The notes beneath the pieces were generated by a model. It ran no database searches. It saw only the letters and a list, made by a program, of their open reading frames with translations, and was not told the origin of the DNA. Position numbers and translations under genes: made by a program. From the NCBI GenBank assembly GCA_963545565.1, contig CAUUJV010000009.1:1593-65592 (forward strand): DNA of 64,000 bases, written 5' to 3'. Shown here piece after piece: positions 22,932 to 58,805 of this stretch; the stretch's first letter is position 1; each line of letters starts with the position of its first letter. Source of the DNA: an uncultured Alloscardovia sp. Its GTDB lineage: Bacteria; Actinomycetota; Actinomycetes; Actinomycetales; Bifidobacteriaceae.

Positions 22932-24533
22932 ATGGGAGATGAAAGCTCACTGATTCTTGTATCGACAACGGTTTCAGACATTGGCTACATGCGTCACGAC
23001 AATCAAGACTCCTCGTTTGCTGGAGAGCATCTTGTTGCTGTATGCGATGGCATGGGCGGTCACGCTGGAGGAGACACTGCTTCAACGATTGCTATACGAT
23101 CTTTGGCTCATCTCGAAAAAGGCAAAATTCCTGAGGAAGATCTCAACAGTGACGGTGTAGTTTCCATTGAGGAAGTGGCATCTACACTTGAGACTTCTGT
23201 AATTGCCGCACATGACGCAATTGTAGGTAAGGCCAAGCGCGAGCGCAGATTAGCTGGTATGGGAACCACCGTCACCGCTCTTACTCTTGTCGATAATTAC
23301 TGGATTCTGGCACACATTGGCGATTCTCGGGCGTATTTACTGCGTAATGGTCGTATTATTCGAATCACAAAAGACCACAGTCTTGTTCAGCATCTTGTTG
23401 ACACTGGCCATATCACTGAAGAAGAAGCGAAAAGCCATCCTCAACGCAACGTTGTGATGCGCGTATTGGGCGACTTTGACATCGATCCACGCCCTGATAT
23501 TGCTATTCGCAAAGCTCATGCTGGTGACCGTTGGATGCTCTGCTCTGATGGATTATGCGGCGTGCTTGAAGATGACACTATAGAGGAAGTTCTTTCTACA
23601 ACGCCTAGTCTTGAAGACTGCGCTCAAAAACTTGTTCTAATGGCATTAAAAGCGGGCAGCTCCGACAACGTAAGTGTTGCAATCGTTGATGCGCTCGATG
23701 CTTCCACTGCTTTAGCCACCTCAGTAAATGGTCGTTACCAGATACCGCTCGTCGGCGGCGCAGCAAGCAAACAATTACAGCCGATTGCAGATACCATCGG
23801 TGAAACTGTTACCCTTGCACCTGAGTTGGAAGATAATTCTGATTCCCCTGCAAGCCGTGCTGCAGCGCTGGCAAATCAAGGTTCTACTGGGAAGCTTCAG
23901 ATGGCTCGCCCATCCCATAAGGCATCTTCTAAGTCTGGAACCAATTCTGACTATGATGTGGCAATGCCAGATACTGGCGAAATTCCAGTTGTACATAAGC
24001 ACGATGGGTCTGTTATCAGCGATCCGCATGACCCTGAAGTTGCACACGCCATTATTGAAGACCGAAACAAGACTAATTCCAAAGCTCGCACGCGTAAGCG
24101 CGTAAAGCGAGTTGCAATCGTTGTTATTATTCTCGCTGTACTCGCTGCCCTCTCTGGCGGCGGATACGCGGCATGGAACTGGTCTCAATCCCAATACTAT
24201 GTAGGCGAATATAACGGCAAAGTAGCTATTTATCAAGGCGTTCCAACAAATATCTTTGGAGTGGCTCTCTCTCACGAGGTTAAAGAAACATCAATCAAAG
24301 TTTCTACTCTCCCCTCAGCATGGCGCCAGCAAATTAAGCAAGGCATCGCTGTATCTTCCTACAAGGCAGCAGTGCAGCATACCAAGGTTATTAAGAAGCA
24401 AGTAGAGCAGTTGAAAGCAAGCAAAAAGAAAGCGTCACAGAAAAAATCAGATAGTTCAAGTTCTTCAGATACCTCTTCTCAGGAATCTCAAAGCTCTCAA
24501 GAGTCCCAAAACTCCCAGGATTCTCAGGAGTAA
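22932..24533 (+). CDS. pstP: PP2C-family Ser/Thr phosphatase PstP with a TM segment and an extracellular tail
   Basis: VCDGMGGHAGGD and CSDGL PP2C motifs, a TM segment near residue 400 and an S/Q-rich C-terminus. Confidence 0.92.
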   Translation: MGDESSLILVSTTVSDIGYMRHDNQDSSFAGEHLVAVCDGMGGHAGGDTASTIAIRSLAHLEKGKIPEEDLNSDGVVSIEEVASTLETSVIAAHDAIVGKAKRERRLAGMGTTVTALTLVDNYWILAHIGDSRAYLLRNGRIIRITKDHSLVQHLVDTGHITEEEAKSHPQRNVVMRVLGDFDIDPRPDIAIRKAHAGDRWMLCSDGLCGVLEDDTIEEVLSTTPSLEDCAQKLVLMALKAGSSDNVSVAIVDALDASTALATSVNGRYQIPLVGGAASKQLQPIADTIGETVTLAPELEDNSDSPASRAAALANQGSTGKLQMARPSHKASSKSGTNSDYDVAMPDTGEIPVVHKHDGSVISDPHDPEVAHAIIEDRNKTNSKARTRKRVKRVAIVVIILAVLAALSGGGYAAWNWSQSQYYVGEYNGKVAIYQGVPTNIFGVALSHEVKETSIKVSTLPSAWRQQIKQGIAVSSYKAAVQHTKVIKKQVEQLKASKKKASQKKSDSSSSSDTSSQESQSSQESQNSQDSQE

Positions 24534-50653: not shown

Positions 50654-50858
50654 CACTTATCAGGCCACAGCAGCAAAATCTACACTGCCATAATTTTTTG
50701 ATCCAATTGTTTTGAATGCACCATAGTTCTTCATACAAAATGTCTATCTCTGCCACTTCTGCGTTTACTTTCGAGTCATAGGAACGCAAACGCTGAAACA
50801 TATCGTGTCAATTGTTCACTACGGAACACTACAAGAATTGATACGAAAGGAAGACATC

Positions 50859-52182
50859 ATGGAGGTTTCAACCACACTTCCAATAGTAGCCAGTCAAGAA
50901 CAAGAAGAACAACAATCCATGGTGCGTAAGGTCGCACTAGCATCTTTCCTAGGAAACTTCATTGAATGGTTTGATTATGCGTCGTACTCTTATCTCGCAA
51001 CGATTATTGCAGCAGTATTCTTCCCTGCATCTAATGCAACAGTCGCTCTTATTCAAACTTTCGCAATCTTCGCACTCTCGTTTCTTCTGCGCCCTATTGG
51101 TGCACTCTTTTGGGGTAATTTTGGAGACAAGCATGGTCGCAAACGCACACTGTCAATTTCTATTATTCTGATGAGTGGCGCAACTTTCCTCATTGGATGT
51201 TTGCCTTCATACAGCATAGTTGGACTTGCCGCGCCTCTATTACTACTCTTCCTGCGCATGGTTCAAAGCTTCTCAGCATCCGGAGAATATGCTGGTGCAG
51301 CAACTTTCTTAGGGGAGTATGCTCCAACTAGTAAACGTGGGCTCTATTGCTCTCTTATCCCCGCTTCTACAGCAATTGGGCTCCTAGCAGGCTCCAGCGC
51401 AATTAAGCACTTCAAGTCTGCAAGGCTGGGGCTGGAGATTACCATTCCTTCTCGCTGGGCCTCTCGGCGCTATTGTCTACTACATCCGTACTCAGCTTGC
51501 AGATTCTCCTGTTTACGAATCTATGACCGCCGAACTGGCAGCCAAAAATTCTAACGGGGAAGAAAACTCTTTCCCACTGCGCACTCTTCTTCACGATCAC
51601 TTGCGTGAGGTTATCATCAGTTTTGGTGCAGCAACTTTGAATGCCGTTGGCTTCTATATTGTTTTGACTTATCTGCCAACTTATTTAACCGACACTGTGC
51701 ATATGAGCTCTTCATCTGCTTCGATTGCAACCACTACCGCATTGATTGCTTACGTTGCCATGGTATTTGCAATGGGACATTTAAGCGACACCATTGGTCG
51801 TAAGAAAATTCTCATTACTGCATGCGTTGCCTTCATAATCTTGACAGTCCCAGCCTTTATGATTCTCAGATCTGGTGCTCTTATTCCAGTTATTCTCGTT
51901 GAGCTCGTTATGTGTGCTGCACTTGCTGCAAACGATGGAAGCTTATCCAGCTACTTGACTGAGACCTTCCCAACTTCCGTGCGATTCACTGGCTTTGCTT
52001 TCAGCTTCAACATGGCTAATGCAATTTTCGGTGGGACTGCATCTCTTATCGCAACGAGTCTGATTTATGTAACAGGATCTGTCATCAGCCCGGCAATTTA
52101 TATGGTTGTTATCTCACTGATTGCGCTTGCTGCCATGATTCTTTCCCATGAGAACACTAACAAGAATCTCACTGAAATTTAA
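50859..52182 (+). pseudogene. MFS transporter of the metabolite:H+ symporter (MHS, ProP/KgtP-like) family, split by a frameshift near 51395-51405
   Basis: The N-terminal ORF carries FLGNFIEWFDYASY and GDKHGRKRTL motifs. The continuation WGWRLPFLLAGPLGAIVYYIRTQL... lies in another frame and joins the tracked ORF at 51523-52182. Confidence 0.65.
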
Positions 52183-54926: not shown

Positions 54927-55082
54927 CCCTCTATTGTGCCACTCACTCCCGCATTTTCGCGATTACTGAGTTCCAGTTTGCTATCTCTTCCAAAGACAAG
55001 ACACACCGAAGGAGCAAAGTTGACGAAATCTAATTTAAGTCATAAGATAATCACTTGTGTGATTCAAGAGGATCGCAACGTC

Positions 55083-55156
55083 GGGCCCATAGCTCAGTTG
55101 GTTAGAGCGCATCCCTGATAAGGATGAGGTCGGAGGTTCAAATCCTCCTGGGCCCA
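55083..55156 (+). tRNA. tRNA-Ile (anticodon GAT)
   Basis: GGGCCCATAGCTCAGTTGGTTAGAGCGCATCCCTGATAAGGATGAGGTCGGAGGTTCAAATCCTCCTGGGCCCA forms a cloverleaf with anticodon loop CTGATAA. Confidence 0.93.
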
Positions 55157-55174
55157 CGGCCGCAAGGTCAGCTT

Positions 55175-55247
55175 GGGGGTATGGCGCAGCTGGTAGCGCA
55201 TCTGCTTTGCAAGCAGAGGGTCAGGGGTTCGAGTCCCCTTACCTCCA
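55175..55247 (+). tRNA. tRNA-Ala (anticodon TGC)
   Basis: GGGGGTATGGCGCAGCTGGTAGCGCATCTGCTTTGCAAGCAGAGGGTCAGGGGTTCGAGTCCCCTTACCTCCA, with the G3:U70 identity pair present. Confidence 0.93.
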
Positions 55248-55252
55248 CAACT

Positions 55253-55286
55253 AAGGCTTTCAGAGAAAATCTGAAAGCCTTTTTTC
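55253..55286 (+). terminator. Intrinsic terminator of the tRNA-Ile/tRNA-Ala pair
   Basis: AAGGCTTTCAG-agaaaat-CTGAAAGCCTT followed by TTTTT. Confidence 0.8.
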
Positions 55287-55642
55287 ATGCCAAAAGCCTT
55301 GAAAATACTGGGCTAGCGGGCGTTCTCCTGTTCTTCTGGTTTTCCCGTATAAGACCGAATTTAGATGCTTATAACCTCAAGTTAGGTAACAATTTAGGTA
55401 ACACTTTTTCTCTCTTAATGCGCCACACAGTCTTATTGATTTCGACGCCAGAATTGCATACAGTGTAAGAACGATTGCACATGACTGCATACCTAAAGGT
55501 TTAGTCTGCGCTGGTTCTACTCGACCGAGAGCATTGCTCTCGGTCTTGTTCTATATCTGATACGTATTATCAGAGCTGTCTCATCTTCCTAAACTTCATC
55601 GAGTTTAGGAAAAACACCCTTTTCGTCTTTCTGAGAGCTGAT

Positions 55643-55672
55643 TTGACATTTATCGGCATCTGCGGGTATTGT
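55643..55672 (+). promoter_or_regulatory. Candidate sigma-70-type promoter of the cys leader (TTGACA - 18 nt - TATTGT)
   Basis: A perfect -35 hexamer lies at 55643-55648 and a -10-like TATTGT at 55667-55672. The position is appropriate, ~35 nt upstream of the leader ATG. Confidence 0.45.
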
Positions 55673-55707
55673 CACAACTGTTGCAAGCCAAGTTGAAAGG
55701 AGCCATC

Positions 55708-55779
55708 ATGACAAATCGTACATGTGCATGTTGTCTGGCTTCATTCCTTTCGGCTTGTCTGAAAAGTGACTGTTGTTAA
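55708..55779 (+). CDS. Candidate cysteine-rich leader peptide (23 aa, MTNRTCACCLASFLSACLKSDCC)
   Basis: My own translation. SD GAAAGGAG lies 5-6 nt upstream. Six of 23 codons are TGT. The ORF is too short to appear in the supplied track. Confidence 0.55.
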   Translation: MTNRTCACCLASFLSACLKSDCC

Positions 55780-55836
55780 GACAACGTATAACGCATAAGC
55801 GTAGCGTGTAAAACGACGCACATATCGAAGCTGAGG

Positions 55837-55859
55837 GGACGCAGACGGCGTCCTTTTTT
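55837..55859 (+). terminator. Intrinsic terminator (candidate attenuator) between the Cys leader ORF and cysK
   Basis: GGACGC-agacg-GCGTCC followed by TTTTTT. Confidence 0.7.
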
Positions 55860-56078
55860 ATGGATTCTGCATGTAAAGCGTCATTTCACACGAAGATATC
55901 GATAAAAATTGCTCACCAAAAGTCCACAGGCTTTCTGCACTTACCACACACAATAATCAATAAAAAATCAATCAAAATGAGAATCATTGGCCAAAAATGG
56001 GCTGACACTCAAAACAGCCAATTTTCTTACCAACTCTCACCAACCAAATATTCAGTTGGACATTCCTAAGGAAAAATT

Positions 56079-56990
56079 ATGAAGTACAGCCAGCATATCG
56101 AATCATTAATCGGCACCACACCTCTTGTAGACCTCTCCTCACTCGTTGATGGTAAGGCCACAATTCTCGGCAAATATGAAGCTACGAATCCTGGTGGATC
56201 TGTTAAAGACCGTATTGCACGAGCAATAGTCGACGCCGCTGAAAAAGATGGAAGCCTTAAAGCCGGCGGCACTATTATTGAGCCAACATCAGGCAATACT
56301 GGCGTAGGTCTCGCCATGATTGCTGCCGCACGTGGTTATTCCATGATTCTCGTTATGCCTGAAACCATGTCTGTTGAACGCCGAAAACTTGCCGTAAGTT
56401 ACGGTGCACGCATTGTGCTCACTCCTGGTAAAGATGGCATGAAGGGTGCGATTGCAAAGGCTGATGAGTTGCATGAGCAAACACCAGATTCAATCGTTGC
56501 CGGGCAGTTTGTTAATCCAGCTAACCCTCGTGCTCACTATGAGACGACCGGCCCTGAAATTTGGAAAGACACAGAAGGCCATGTTGATGTGCTCGTTGCA
56601 GGCGTAGGCACCGGTGGCACAGTATCTGGCACGGGTAAGTATCTTAAGGGGAAGAAGTCCAGCACATATGTGGTTGCAGTAGAGCCGGAAGAAAGCCAGG
56701 TTCTTGCAGGTAAGCCGTCGGGCGCACACAGTATTCAGGGAATTGGTGCAGGCTTTGTTCCTAAAACCTATGACGCTAGCGTGGTTGACGAAGTTGTGCC
56801 AGTCACCTCACAAGATGCAATTGATACTAAGAAAACACTTTCAAGTAGTAACGGTCTGCTTGTTGGGATTAGCTCTGGGGCAGCTGTTGCAGCAGCTGTA
56901 AATTTGGGGAATCGTTCTGAATTTGCAGGAAAAACTATCGTAGCAATCTTGCCAGATACAGGCGAGCGCTACCTGTCTATGGATTTGTAA
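56079..56990 (+). CDS. cysK: Cysteine synthase A (O-acetylserine sulfhydrylase)
   Basis: PLP-lysine region NPGGSVKDR, TSGNTG and GTGGT motifs; 303 aa. Confidence 0.95.
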   Translation: MKYSQHIESLIGTTPLVDLSSLVDGKATILGKYEATNPGGSVKDRIARAIVDAAEKDGSLKAGGTIIEPTSGNTGVGLAMIAAARGYSMILVMPETMSVERRKLAVSYGARIVLTPGKDGMKGAIAKADELHEQTPDSIVAGQFVNPANPRAHYETTGPEIWKDTEGHVDVLVAGVGTGGTVSGTGKYLKGKKSSTYVVAVEPEESQVLAGKPSGAHSIQGIGAGFVPKTYDASVVDEVVPVTSQDAIDTKKTLSSSNGLLVGISSGAAVAAAVNLGNRSEFAGKTIVAILPDTGERYLSMDL

Positions 56991-56998
56991 AGAAGACT

Positions 56999-57637
56999 AT
57001 GAACCGTAAAAAAACACGCCAATCAGTCTGGAGAGCACTGGCGCAGCGATATCGCGAAGATGTGACCGTGGCTCTCCAGCGCGACCCAAGTTTGACGAAT
57101 GCCCGTGAAGCTGTGCTTTTTTCCACAGGGCTGCACGCTATCTGGGCATTTCGCCGTCAACATTGGCTGTGGGAGCGCGGTTTCCATACCGTGGCATTGT
57201 TTTTATCACACCGGTCTCGCCGCCGTTGGGGAATAGATATTCACCCAGCGGCTACTATCGGGCGCCGCTTCTTTATCGATCATGGTGAGGGAATTGTTAT
57301 AGGCGAAACAGCCGTTATTGGCGATGATTGCCTTCTGTATCAAGGAGTAACTCTGGGTATGACGGGTCACCACGGCGGTAAGCGCCACCCCACGCTAGGC
57401 AATAACGTTTTTGTGGGAGCCGGAGCCATTATCTTAGGCGATATTCATCTTGGAGATGACTCTAAAGTAGGTGCTGGAGCGGTTTTGCTGCACGATGTGC
57501 CTAATGGAGCAACAGTCACTGGAATTCCTGCACACGTAGTGAAAATCGACTCTCGCTCTTTGAGTGATTTCCTTGTGTTGCCGCACGATCATTCCACAAT
57601 AGACGATGAAAATATTCGCTGGTCATGCGCATTGTAA
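56999..57637 (+). CDS. cysE: Serine O-acetyltransferase
   Basis: The SATase N-terminal helical region is followed by hexapeptide repeats IDHGEGIVIGETAVIGDDCLLYQGVTLG. Confidence 0.92.
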   Translation: MNRKKTRQSVWRALAQRYREDVTVALQRDPSLTNAREAVLFSTGLHAIWAFRRQHWLWERGFHTVALFLSHRSRRRWGIDIHPAATIGRRFFIDHGEGIVIGETAVIGDDCLLYQGVTLGMTGHHGGKRHPTLGNNVFVGAGAIILGDIHLGDDSKVGAGAVLLHDVPNGATVTGIPAHVVKIDSRSLSDFLVLPHDHSTIDDENIRWSCAL

Positions 57638-57705
57638 TGTTGTATCACTGTAATACGTACAGTAATACGGTAACGCGCAGTGGAATTCTACTGTGAGGTT
57701 TGTGA

Positions 57706-58805
57706 TTATTCGTAGTTCGCTGGCTCTAATTTGCCATGATTTTCAATGCGCCCCGGACGGCGATAATCTGGTTCAATCCAAATCTGCAAAGTGTATTGAG
57801 GGAACTGTGTATAAAGCTCTTTCTCAATGTCGTTAATCATATCTTCTACAAAGTATTCGTTGCCAGACTGCTGAGCGGCTGCCTTGTCAATTTCAACTTT
57901 GAATGATGGGTGAATAAAATCTTCAGATTTTTGAGTAATTTCGTATGAGATAACGGATTTGACACCCTTGGCAGATGCCACAATCTCAATCATTCGGTCG
58001 ATAATGTGGCGATGCGGAGCCTCTTCATTAAGCATAGAGGCAATCTTCAACGCTAAGCCTAAACCACCAATTGCAATAAAAGTACCATCTGCCGCACCGC
58101 CGATAGCATCAAACAACTCATTGCCTGTAATGCGAGCAATAATCAAGCCAATCCCAGCAATCACCAGGCCGCACAAGGCCAAAGTGTCTTCTGTCATCAC
58201 CGTTGCCAGTTCAGCAGCCTTAGTCTTTTGCCAGAATTTGAAAATATTAAGATGCTCAATCCCCTCAAGCTTTGCCTGAGATTTGGCTTCAACAAGTGAT
58301 GTATGCAGAGAAATTCCCTCAACAATAAAAGCAAAAATAACTGCGGCGATGCCAAGGTTAAAAGCAAGGCCGTCGATTTGCTCATACCCACCCTCTTCAA
58401 TGATGGAAACAATCTTAGTGACAGAATTCATCAAAGAATACAAACCGCCAACAAAGAAAAGAAGCAGAGCAACAATCAAGCTGGAAACATTACGAAAGTT
58501 TGCCCAGCCTTGGGGATGGCGCTCATCAGGATCATGCTTTTGCGAAAACGTTTACCGAAGATGAGCATAAGCTCATTGCCGCAATCTGCAAACGAATGCA
58601 CAGACTCTGCAAGCATGGACGAAGATTTACCAATAAGAGCCGCAATAAGCTTAAAAAGGAACACTAAGAAGTTCGCAATCAGAGCCGCAATAACAGAGGA
58701 GCCTCCATGCTCATTCTTCTGCGTAGCTTTACGAATATTGCGGGCTTTGAGGTCAGCTTCGTCAATCGGCTCCATAGTTCGTGGCCTTGTAGTGTTGCTC
58801 GTCAT
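57706..58805 (-). pseudogene. Cation diffusion facilitator (CDF) family metal exporter, split by a frameshift in a short homopolymer run (A4 at 58546-58549 on the plus strand)
   Basis: The N-terminal ORF reads ...SMLAESVHSFADCGNELMLIFGKRF. The continuation SQKHDPDERHPQGWANFRNVSSLIVALLLFF... is in another frame. The ATG at 58805 overlaps the ansA stop (ATGA). Confidence 0.65.

Follow-up and report, generated by a model that had tools for sequence, protein, structure and literature searches.

How is the expression of the cysteine-synthesis genes cysK and cysE linked to the supply of cysteine in the organism represented by contig CAUUJV010000009.1 (assembly GCA_963545565.1, deposited as an uncultured Alloscardovia sp.)? 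The question is raised by a stretch of 64,000 nucleotides (nt) of this contig, positions 1,593 to 65,592, hereafter the window, in which the two genes are preceded by a short open reading frame (ORF) rich in cysteine (Cys) codons and by an intrinsic terminator. The original prediction, made on reading the sequence, was that these elements form an attenuator responding to cysteine. On the evidence set out below we consider, with moderate confidence, that the leader is a ribosome-mediated, Cys-keyed transcription attenuator controlling cysK-cysE. The elements on which the argument turns, numbered from the first letter of the window, are the following.

55643 to 55672, forward strand: promoter-like pair TTGACA-18 nt-TATTGT (consensus scan, 10 of 12 matches)
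55686 to 55705, forward strand: segment 1, 5' untranslated region (UTR) including the Shine-Dalgarno (SD) sequence GAAAGGAG at 55695-55702; partner of segment 2 in helix A (minimum-free-energy (MFE) fold, inverted repeat I1)
55708 to 55779, forward strand: leader ORF of 23 codons, MTNRTCACCLASFLSACLKSDCC (sequence)
55723-55725, 55729-55734, 55756-55758 and 55771-55776, forward strand: Cys codons of the leader ORF (sequence)
55728 to 55760, forward strand: segment 2, the switch strand within the ORF (codons 7-18), partner of either segment 1 or the terminator region (constrained folds, duplex folding)
55766 to 55821, forward strand: helix B, a branched hairpin lying between ORF end and terminator (MFE and centroid folds)
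55828 to 55859, forward strand: segments 3 and 4, the terminator, with 5' flank AAGCUGAG, stem GGGACGC/GCGUCCU at 55836-55854, loop AGACG and T6 at 55854-55859 (RNAfold)
55860 to 56078, forward strand: untranslated spacer of 219 nt between terminator and cysK, A/C-rich and G-poor, holding the cysK SD AAGGAA (sequence, fold z-score, GC skew)
56079 to 56990, forward strand: cysK, cysteine synthase A (O-acetylserine sulfhydrylase; TIGR01139, 410.7 bits against a cut-off of 351)
56999 to 57637, forward strand: cysE, serine O-acetyltransferase (TIGR01172, 215.2 bits against a cut-off of 210.7)

The promoter-like pair consists of a -35-like TTGACA (55643-55648) and a -10-like TATTGT (55667-55672) at a spacing of 18 nt, and it is the top site both within 55000-58000 in the consensus scan and, in a separate scan, within 55250-56085. 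Since the number of promoter-like sites in the region is not above that in shuffled sequences (3 observed against 4.0 expected, i.e. no enrichment), the pair is treated as a candidate promoter only, which would place the start of the transcript near 55679-55681. In the spacer between the terminator and cysK (55860-56078) the same type of scan returned no site with at least 9 of 12 matches, and weak sites with 7-8 matches are present there. The SD sequence contains a perfect AAGGAG and ends 5 nt 5' of the ATG at 55708; the frame is closed by a TAA at 55777-55779, 300 nt before cysK, and its six Cys codons, all TGT, occupy codons 6, 8, 9, 17, 22 and 23. The terminator, with the arms GGACGC (55837-55842) and GCGTCC (55848-55853) followed by T6, begins 57 nt past the stop codon, and given the gap of only 8 nt between them cysK and cysE are probably co-transcribed. 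The promoter-like pair, the SD, the 23-codon ORF with its six TGT codons, the hairpin with its T run and the cysK-cysE pair are thus all present as originally described, and so is the layout of a leader-peptide attenuator, in which an SD-led, Cys-rich ORF and an intrinsic terminator stand before cysK. The position of such an ORF directly upstream of two genes for the synthesis of cysteine itself supports the assignment.

A short ORF with several Cys codons could arise by accident, and the first matter to be settled is whether this one did. The two strands of the window hold 763 ORFs of 8-60 codons that start with ATG, and the leader ORF is the richest of them in Cys; the second most Cys-rich, with 5 Cys in 24 residues, is located inside a gene. 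In random sequence of the composition of the window, at least 6 Cys in 22 codons would occur with a probability of 3.9e-5 per ORF, and the number of ORFs this rich in Cys expected by chance is about 0.03 for the whole window and about 3e-4 for the region upstream of cysK. In the 43 genes of the window Cys accounts for 0.85% of codons, and these genes favour TGC (91 codons) over TGT (53), the probability of six TGT in six being 0.0025. The Cys richness of the leader ORF is above chance.

For the terminator RNAfold assigns -9.4 kcal/mol to the 6-base-pair (bp) core and -13.5 kcal/mol to the hairpin extended by A-U and G-U pairs into the U run. The hairpin at 55837-55859 was not reported by the consensus terminator scan, and the G-T pairs that extend it into the T run are the likely reason. 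In the ribosome-free leader (fold z = -2.3) the terminator stem forms with a probability of 0.996, and the RNA folds into three parts, namely helix A, helix B and the terminator. Helix A, hereafter pairing 1:2, joins 55686-55705, and with it the SD, to 55736-55760 (codons 10-18), whereas helix B carries Cys codons 22-23 and the stop codon in its 5' arm and is kept in every fold in which the modelled ribosome leaves it uncovered. Once the SD strand was blocked, a further pairing emerged in the folding, 2:3, in which codons 7-17 (55728-55756) are complementary to the 5' flank, the loop and the 3' arm of the terminator (55828-55851). This pairing comprises helix i, between AUGUUGUCUG (55728-55737) and CAGACGGCGU (55842-55851), and helix ii, between UCCUUUCGGCUU (55745-55756) and AAGCUGAGGGGA (55828-55839).

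The two competing duplexes are of nearly the same strength, 1:2 between UTR and ORF having -29.6 kcal/mol and 2:3 between ORF and terminator -28.8 kcal/mol. The former is matched by 1 in 2000 dinucleotide shuffles and, among genomic windows of 72 nt, by 0.5%; the latter is matched by 36 in 2000 shuffles and by 2.4% of genomic windows. Blocking of strand 1 lowers the terminator probability to 0.10-0.37. As modelled, then, the leader is a set of three mutually exclusive pairings, 1:2, 2:3 and 3:4 (the last being the terminator itself), with the topology of a classical attenuator, and its peculiarity in these folds is the use of the leader's own ribosome-binding site as strand 1. The original prediction had left the competing structure to folding: codons 7-17 do provide a pairing that excludes the terminator, whereas it is only with a stall at codon 6 and shielding not exceeding +13 that the terminator is clearly prevented. 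The copy of GACGC at 55815-55819, which had been put forward as an alternative partner, competes in no fold: to pair with the terminator's 3' arm it would have to span a loop of about 28 nt, and the local hairpin is retained in every constrained fold.

These pairings suggest the following sequence of events. Transcription would begin near 55680, as the promoter-like site implies, and in the absence of a ribosome pairings 1:2 and 3:4 would form, such that the polymerase stops at about 55859. A ribosome that has run through to the stop codon would leave the same outcome, termination. With Cys-tRNA scarce, the first ribosome to translate the ORF would be expected to wait at codon 6, and subsequently at codons 8-9, between strands 1 and 2; strand 2, lying just past the waiting ribosome, could then join with strand 3 while the terminator's 3' arm is still to be made, and with 2:3 formed RNA polymerase would continue into cysK-cysE.

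The effect of a stalled ribosome was approximated by two models. In the first, the footprint of the ribosome is kept unpaired and pairing across the ribosome is permitted; in the second, folding is limited to the RNA downstream of the ribosome, with the shielding counted from the first base of the P site. The terminator probabilities obtained with the second model are as follows.

A site at Cys codon 6, shielding up to +13: 0.07-0.16
A site at Cys codon 6, shielding +14 to +16: 0.85-0.99
A site at Cys codons 8-9: 0.8-0.9
A site at codon 11 through the stop codon: 0.97-1.0

For a stall at codons 8-9 the antiterminated state lies only 1.4-2.2 kcal/mol above the terminated one and, with helix ii fully formed, keeps just a 4-bp remnant of the terminator. 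Transcription reaches the terminator's 3' arm only after helix ii is complete. The same model was calibrated on the leaders that precede cysK in gut Clostridia-type loci, discussed below. For two of these (L050 and L043) it gives textbook behaviour, with terminator probabilities of about 0 at Cys-codon stalls and 0.9-0.98 at later positions, for two others (L035 and L069) partial switches, and for one (L070) no switch. Because the calibration leaders range from textbook to no switch, an equilibrium model of this kind evidently misses some plausible attenuators, and among them the present leader is mid-range.

A number of results nevertheless weigh against the attenuator, and some of them come from the same models. 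In the first model helix 1:2 persists and the terminator probability is at least 0.99 for stalls at all six Cys codons, although a helix closing so tightly around a ribosome is sterically doubtful. In the second, as listed, an increase in shielding to +14 to +16 is enough to restore the terminator at codon 6. Cys codons 8-9 are themselves part of the antiterminator helix i, and a ribosome stalled on them consequently removes half of the antiterminator, while stalls at Cys codons 17, 22 and 23 do not help read-through at all (at least 0.97 in the second model). The switch would therefore reside in the first Cys cluster and, as modelled, is marginal at equilibrium and dependent on parameters. 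To this may be added the distance of 219 nt between the terminator and cysK, compared with about 30-70 nt in the Clostridia analogues, enough to accommodate an undetected promoter or a second element of control.

The comparison with relatives points in the same unfavourable direction. Among 5.8 billion proteins the CysK of the window has one identical entry and then none above 83% identity; the named entries at 80-83% are from Olsenella, Atopobiaceae and Coriobacteriaceae, and the genome loci of the same group reach 70-77%. Relatives had been expected among the Bifidobacteriaceae, and it is instead from Atopobiaceae, Olsenella and Coriobacteriaceae, at 70-83% identity, that the nearest CysK proteins come. 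Judged by CysK alone, the leader (the window has a G+C content of 46%) would appear to derive from Coriobacteriia-like Actinomycetota rather than from Bifidobacteriaceae. The conservation of the ORF that had been envisaged was not found: it is absent from the nearest available relatives, of which the closest has a CysK 83% identical. Specifically, there is no Cys ORF in the four loci with CysK at this identity (L081-L084), nor in those fetched by way of CysE (L086-L089), nor in L001 and L002. A blastn comparison of the leader and spacer with all 89 fetched loci and with the rest of the window yielded no homologue, and a degenerate DNA pattern of the first nine codons, run against metagenome contigs, gave one match (L085), which falls inside a high-GC gene and is a chance match. 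The leader accordingly has no support from conservation or covariation, which reflects an absence of close comparators rather than evidence of loss.

What the relatives do share upstream of cysK is a palindrome overlapping the promoter, consisting of a 7-nt inverted repeat with a 7-nt spacer followed by TATAAGTGCCATCC; examples are ATCCCAC-N7-GTGGGAT, ATCCTAG-N7-CTAGGAT and TCCTAC-N7-CTAGGA. It is probably the operator of a repressor of a cysteine regulon, and it is found at the following places.

L081, 2376-2420: palindrome upstream of cysK
L083, 2372-2416: the same
L086, 1445-1500: the same
L088, 1476-1520: the same
L001, 1425-1470: the same
L002, 2880-2925: the same
L005, about 215-185 nt upstream of cysK: the same

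The loci fetched by way of CysE (62-69% identity) have this palindromic promoter and keep the tight cysK-cysE pair, and the locus from an Atopobiaceae genome with CysK at 74% identity (L005) combines the palindrome with an ORF, MKIMANIFRCCCTCAV..., that is probably leaderless and is followed by no obvious terminator. Near the cysK of the window the palindrome is absent, and the sole match to the relatives' type of cysK operator in the window, at 23630, has 3 mismatches and is consistent with chance. Because the relatives' palindromic promoter or operator is absent near this cysK, some other control device at this position becomes plausible. In this region there is also a perfect 10-bp inverted repeat, TTCCTAAACT-N6-AGTTTAGGAA, at 55586-55611, 32 nt 5' of the leader promoter's -35 hexamer. 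The TCCTA/TAGGA at its ends resembles half-sites of the relatives' cysK palindrome, but the spacing differs; the repeat could be the site of a regulator or a hairpin.

If close relatives offer no counterpart, more distant lineages do offer analogues. We counted ATG-started small ORFs in the 350 nt upstream of cysK at 78 loci. On the sense strand, ORFs with at least 3 Cys in 8 codons occur at 6 of the 78, compared with 1.47 +/- 1.2 in shuffled sequences and with 3 on the antisense strand, and ORFs with at least 4 Cys occur at 3 of the 78, compared with 0.07 in shuffles. The order promoter, SD, Cys-rich ORF (3-9 Cys), intrinsic terminator and cysK is found in five gut Clostridia-type loci.

L050, 2770-2975: leader whose ORF begins MTKRMNACCCIRRLF...
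L070, 2740-2935: leader whose ORF begins MYGMMCCCQQSSCCGG...
L035, 60-275: leader homologous to that of L043
L043, 1190-1420: leader homologous to that of L035
L069, 2690-2930: leader with the same order of elements

Several of these loci, and also L033, L011 and L063, have an ACCTAT..ATAGGT palindrome at the promoter. Like the leader in the window, four of the five have a stall-dependent terminator in the model (L070 being the exception); they differ from it in the proximity of their terminators to cysK and have no sequence similarity to it, being independent inventions. By analogy, their recurrence supports a function for Cys-rich ORFs before cysK.

The principle of the leader-peptide attenuator is already known, and the present leader would be a new, non-homologous example of it. 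With the classical attenuators (trpL, hisL, leuL, thrL and pheL of Proteobacteria and the trp and ilvB leaders of Actinobacteria; PMC1262725) it shares a short SD-led ORF rich in codons for the product of the pathway, an intrinsic terminator ahead of the first structural gene, and exclusive 1:2, 2:3 and 3:4 pairings that predict termination both without a ribosome and after read-through of the ORF by one. It differs in being keyed to cysteine and in using its own ribosome-binding site as strand 1. In the classical arrangement strand 1 holds the regulatory codons, which here are located between strands 1 and 2 and in part within strand 2. Only the first of the two Cys clusters of the present leader is well placed, and its terminator is remote from the gene. 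It has no sequence similarity to any of the leader families in Rfam: the region 55250-56150 matched no family of Rfam 15, T-box and SAM riboswitches included, at the gathering score, and nothing relevant at E <= 10.

The element had also been thought uncommon and perhaps uncatalogued. It is less unusual than that, for Cys leader ORFs as such have been published (PMC1262725, bioRxiv 10.1101/834739, PMC8632094). In Actinobacteria, leader peptides rich in Cys but lacking terminators were predicted by Seliverstov et al. (2005; PMC1262725), with Rho proposed as the mechanism. Work in M. smegmatis by Canestrari et al. (2020; bioRxiv 10.1101/834739) showed experimentally that leaderless ORFs with polycysteine stretches act as attenuators responsive to cysteine, the attenuation being translational at the locus studied. 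These mycobacterial ORFs, described as a 'Cys ribulon', resemble the present one in belonging to the Actinomycetota, in having consecutive Cys codons (here 8-9 and 22-23) and genes of cysteine metabolism downstream, and in the use of a ribosome pausing at Cys codons as the sensor, which for the present leader is a proposal. They are leaderless, whereas the leader in the window, with a -10 element ending at 55672 and its ATG at 55708, would have a UTR of 28 nt with a strong SD if transcription starts where the promoter-like pair implies; and at the mycobacterial locus studied they expose the adjacent gene's ribosome-binding site, whereas here there is an intrinsic terminator, the ORF stops far from cysK, and the spacer is unstructured.

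Brewer et al. (2021; PMC8632094) described uORFC-8-2 upstream of cysS in Rhodobacterales, with tandem Cys codons and an intrinsic terminator. As in the present leader, tandem Cys codons of an upstream ORF are placed inside a stem, a further stem accompanied by a U run is interpreted as an intrinsic terminator, and the mechanism is proposed to be ribosome-mediated. Compared by description, uORFC-8-2 has its tandem Cys near codons 14-15 in the first stem, belongs to another phylum and precedes a gene for a tRNA synthetase, in contrast to the Cys codons scattered from 6 to 23 and the biosynthetic cysK-cysE pair found here; it is moreover a conserved family with 145 members and a consensus, whereas the studied leader is a singleton without detectable homologues. 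In the searchable literature we found no account of an element of this kind before cysK-cysE, either in Coriobacteriia or in Clostridia.

The alternative to be taken most seriously, though we regard it as unlikely, is that the stretch from the promoter at 55643 to the terminator at 55859 is an independent transcription unit whose RNA of about 180 nt would be either a small RNA or a message encoding a Cys-rich micropeptide, and that cysK has its own, unrecognised promoter in the spacer. A terminator that forms with a probability of at least 0.8 in most modelled states would suit such a unit, as would the lack of conservation of the ORF in relatives; the long AT-rich spacer with its weak sites of 7-8 matches in 12 could accommodate the second promoter; and the SD is sequestered by the downstream coding sequence, which is typical of the mRNAs of tightly controlled small proteins. 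On this account, however, the occurrence of the most Cys-rich small ORF of the window exactly before cysK-cysE has to be a coincidence, as has the recurrence of Cys-rich ORFs with terminators before cysK in other lineages, and there is no reason for the ORF to be complementary to the terminator. The peptide, furthermore, has no match in Pfam, and the neighbouring genes, which show no sign of peptide maturation or of sulfur metabolism, include no evident partner.

Rather improbable, in our estimate, is a second possibility, namely that cysteine is sensed through the ORF by another route, either by Rho-dependent termination or polarity in the C-rich spacer or through a CCUUUC strand acting on the ribosome-binding site of cysK, with the terminator serving as a constant partial brake. 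The spacer does resemble a Rho-utilisation site, with a GC skew of -0.25 to -0.46 and little structure (fold z = -0.77). Three of the six Cys codons (17, 22 and 23) are at odds with the 2:3 model, Rho was proposed for the terminator-free Cys leader ORFs of Actinobacteria (PMC1262725), and the mycobacterial examples act on translation (bioRxiv 10.1101/834739). Against this stands the distance from the end of the leader ORF to cysK, 300 nt, because of which there can be no direct coupling between the two; no stable long-range structure with the ribosome-binding site of cysK is predicted, and the complementarity of ORF and terminator is again left unexplained. The spacer also contains a frame that is open for 69 codons and lacks an SD of its own; its ATG follows immediately on the T run and its TAA lies within the SD of cysK. 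Its product matches no Pfam family.

That nothing more than chance has placed a random TGT-rich ORF with a weak promoter match on one side and a stray hairpin on the other, none of them with a function, seems to us very improbable. Promoter-like sites are indeed not enriched in the region, an ORF with 5 Cys in 24 residues does occur inside a gene elsewhere in the window, and relatives do not conserve the leader. Yet the expectation for such ORFs (about 0.03 per window, about 3e-4 before cysK) is low, the SD is perfect and at the ideal distance, helix A is matched by just 1 in 2000 shuffles, and a clean intrinsic terminator stands in the middle of an intergenic region on the strand of cysK. Finally, a type I toxin-like small membrane peptide with an mRNA that hides its own SD is scarcely credible, for although the SD is strongly sequestered by the coding region and the short peptide has a hydrophobic centre, LASFLSACL, and its own terminator, this stretch falls short of the length of a membrane helix, the consensus scan found no promoter-like site on the opposite strand for an antisense RNA, the peptide has no family match, and the Cys codons and the cysK context would remain unexplained.

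If the attenuator reading holds, the leader would be a terminator-type, Cys-keyed leader-peptide attenuator in Coriobacteriia, immediately before cysK-cysE, and it would extend a mechanism that has been tested so far only as translational control in mycobacteria and is elsewhere only predicted. It would also be a case of regulatory turnover, in which relatives appear to use a protein operator for the same gene and this lineage would use the speed of a ribosome. A more specific proposal, which we make tentatively and think less probable than not, is that a recently arisen Cys attenuator of unusual design, using the ribosome-binding site as strand 1, has replaced the palindromic operator of its relatives in this Coriobacteriia lineage; ribosomes would then have only a brief interval during transcription in which to load, and read-through would hinge on the first Cys codon. 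Taken with the Clostridia leaders, this would imply that cysteine-sensing attenuators arise repeatedly and independently in anaerobes, and the searchable literature yielded no description of a class of that kind before cysK. The unrelated Cys leaders before cysK in gut Clostridia may be more useful than the single case, and could be catalogued and serve for the annotation of cysteine regulons in metagenome-assembled genomes.

Some features of the surroundings may be recorded. Upstream of the leader, adjacent genes for tRNA-Ile(GAT) and tRNA-Ala(TGC) at 55083-55248 have no flanking ribosomal RNA (rRNA) genes, the usual place of this pair being the spacer of an rRNA operon, and they are followed by a perfect 12-bp terminator at 55253-55281. 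The region between that terminator and the leader promoter (55290-55640) contains a strong 11-bp hairpin with a poor T run, GACCGAGAGCA-T-TGCTCTCGGTC, at 55523-55545; it has nothing annotated and no Rfam match, and is otherwise empty. On the other side, cysK-cysE is adjoined by a convergent cation-efflux (CDF) gene with a TTG start on the reverse strand (57706-58479), which matches only positions 73-197 of the profile, and a CDF gene is likewise found near cysK-cysE in L088 (1-682). Further upstream in the window, two overlapping ORFs at 50805-51554 and 51523-52182 match the N-terminal and C-terminal halves, respectively, of an MFS/sugar transporter and probably represent a frameshifted gene or a sequencing error.

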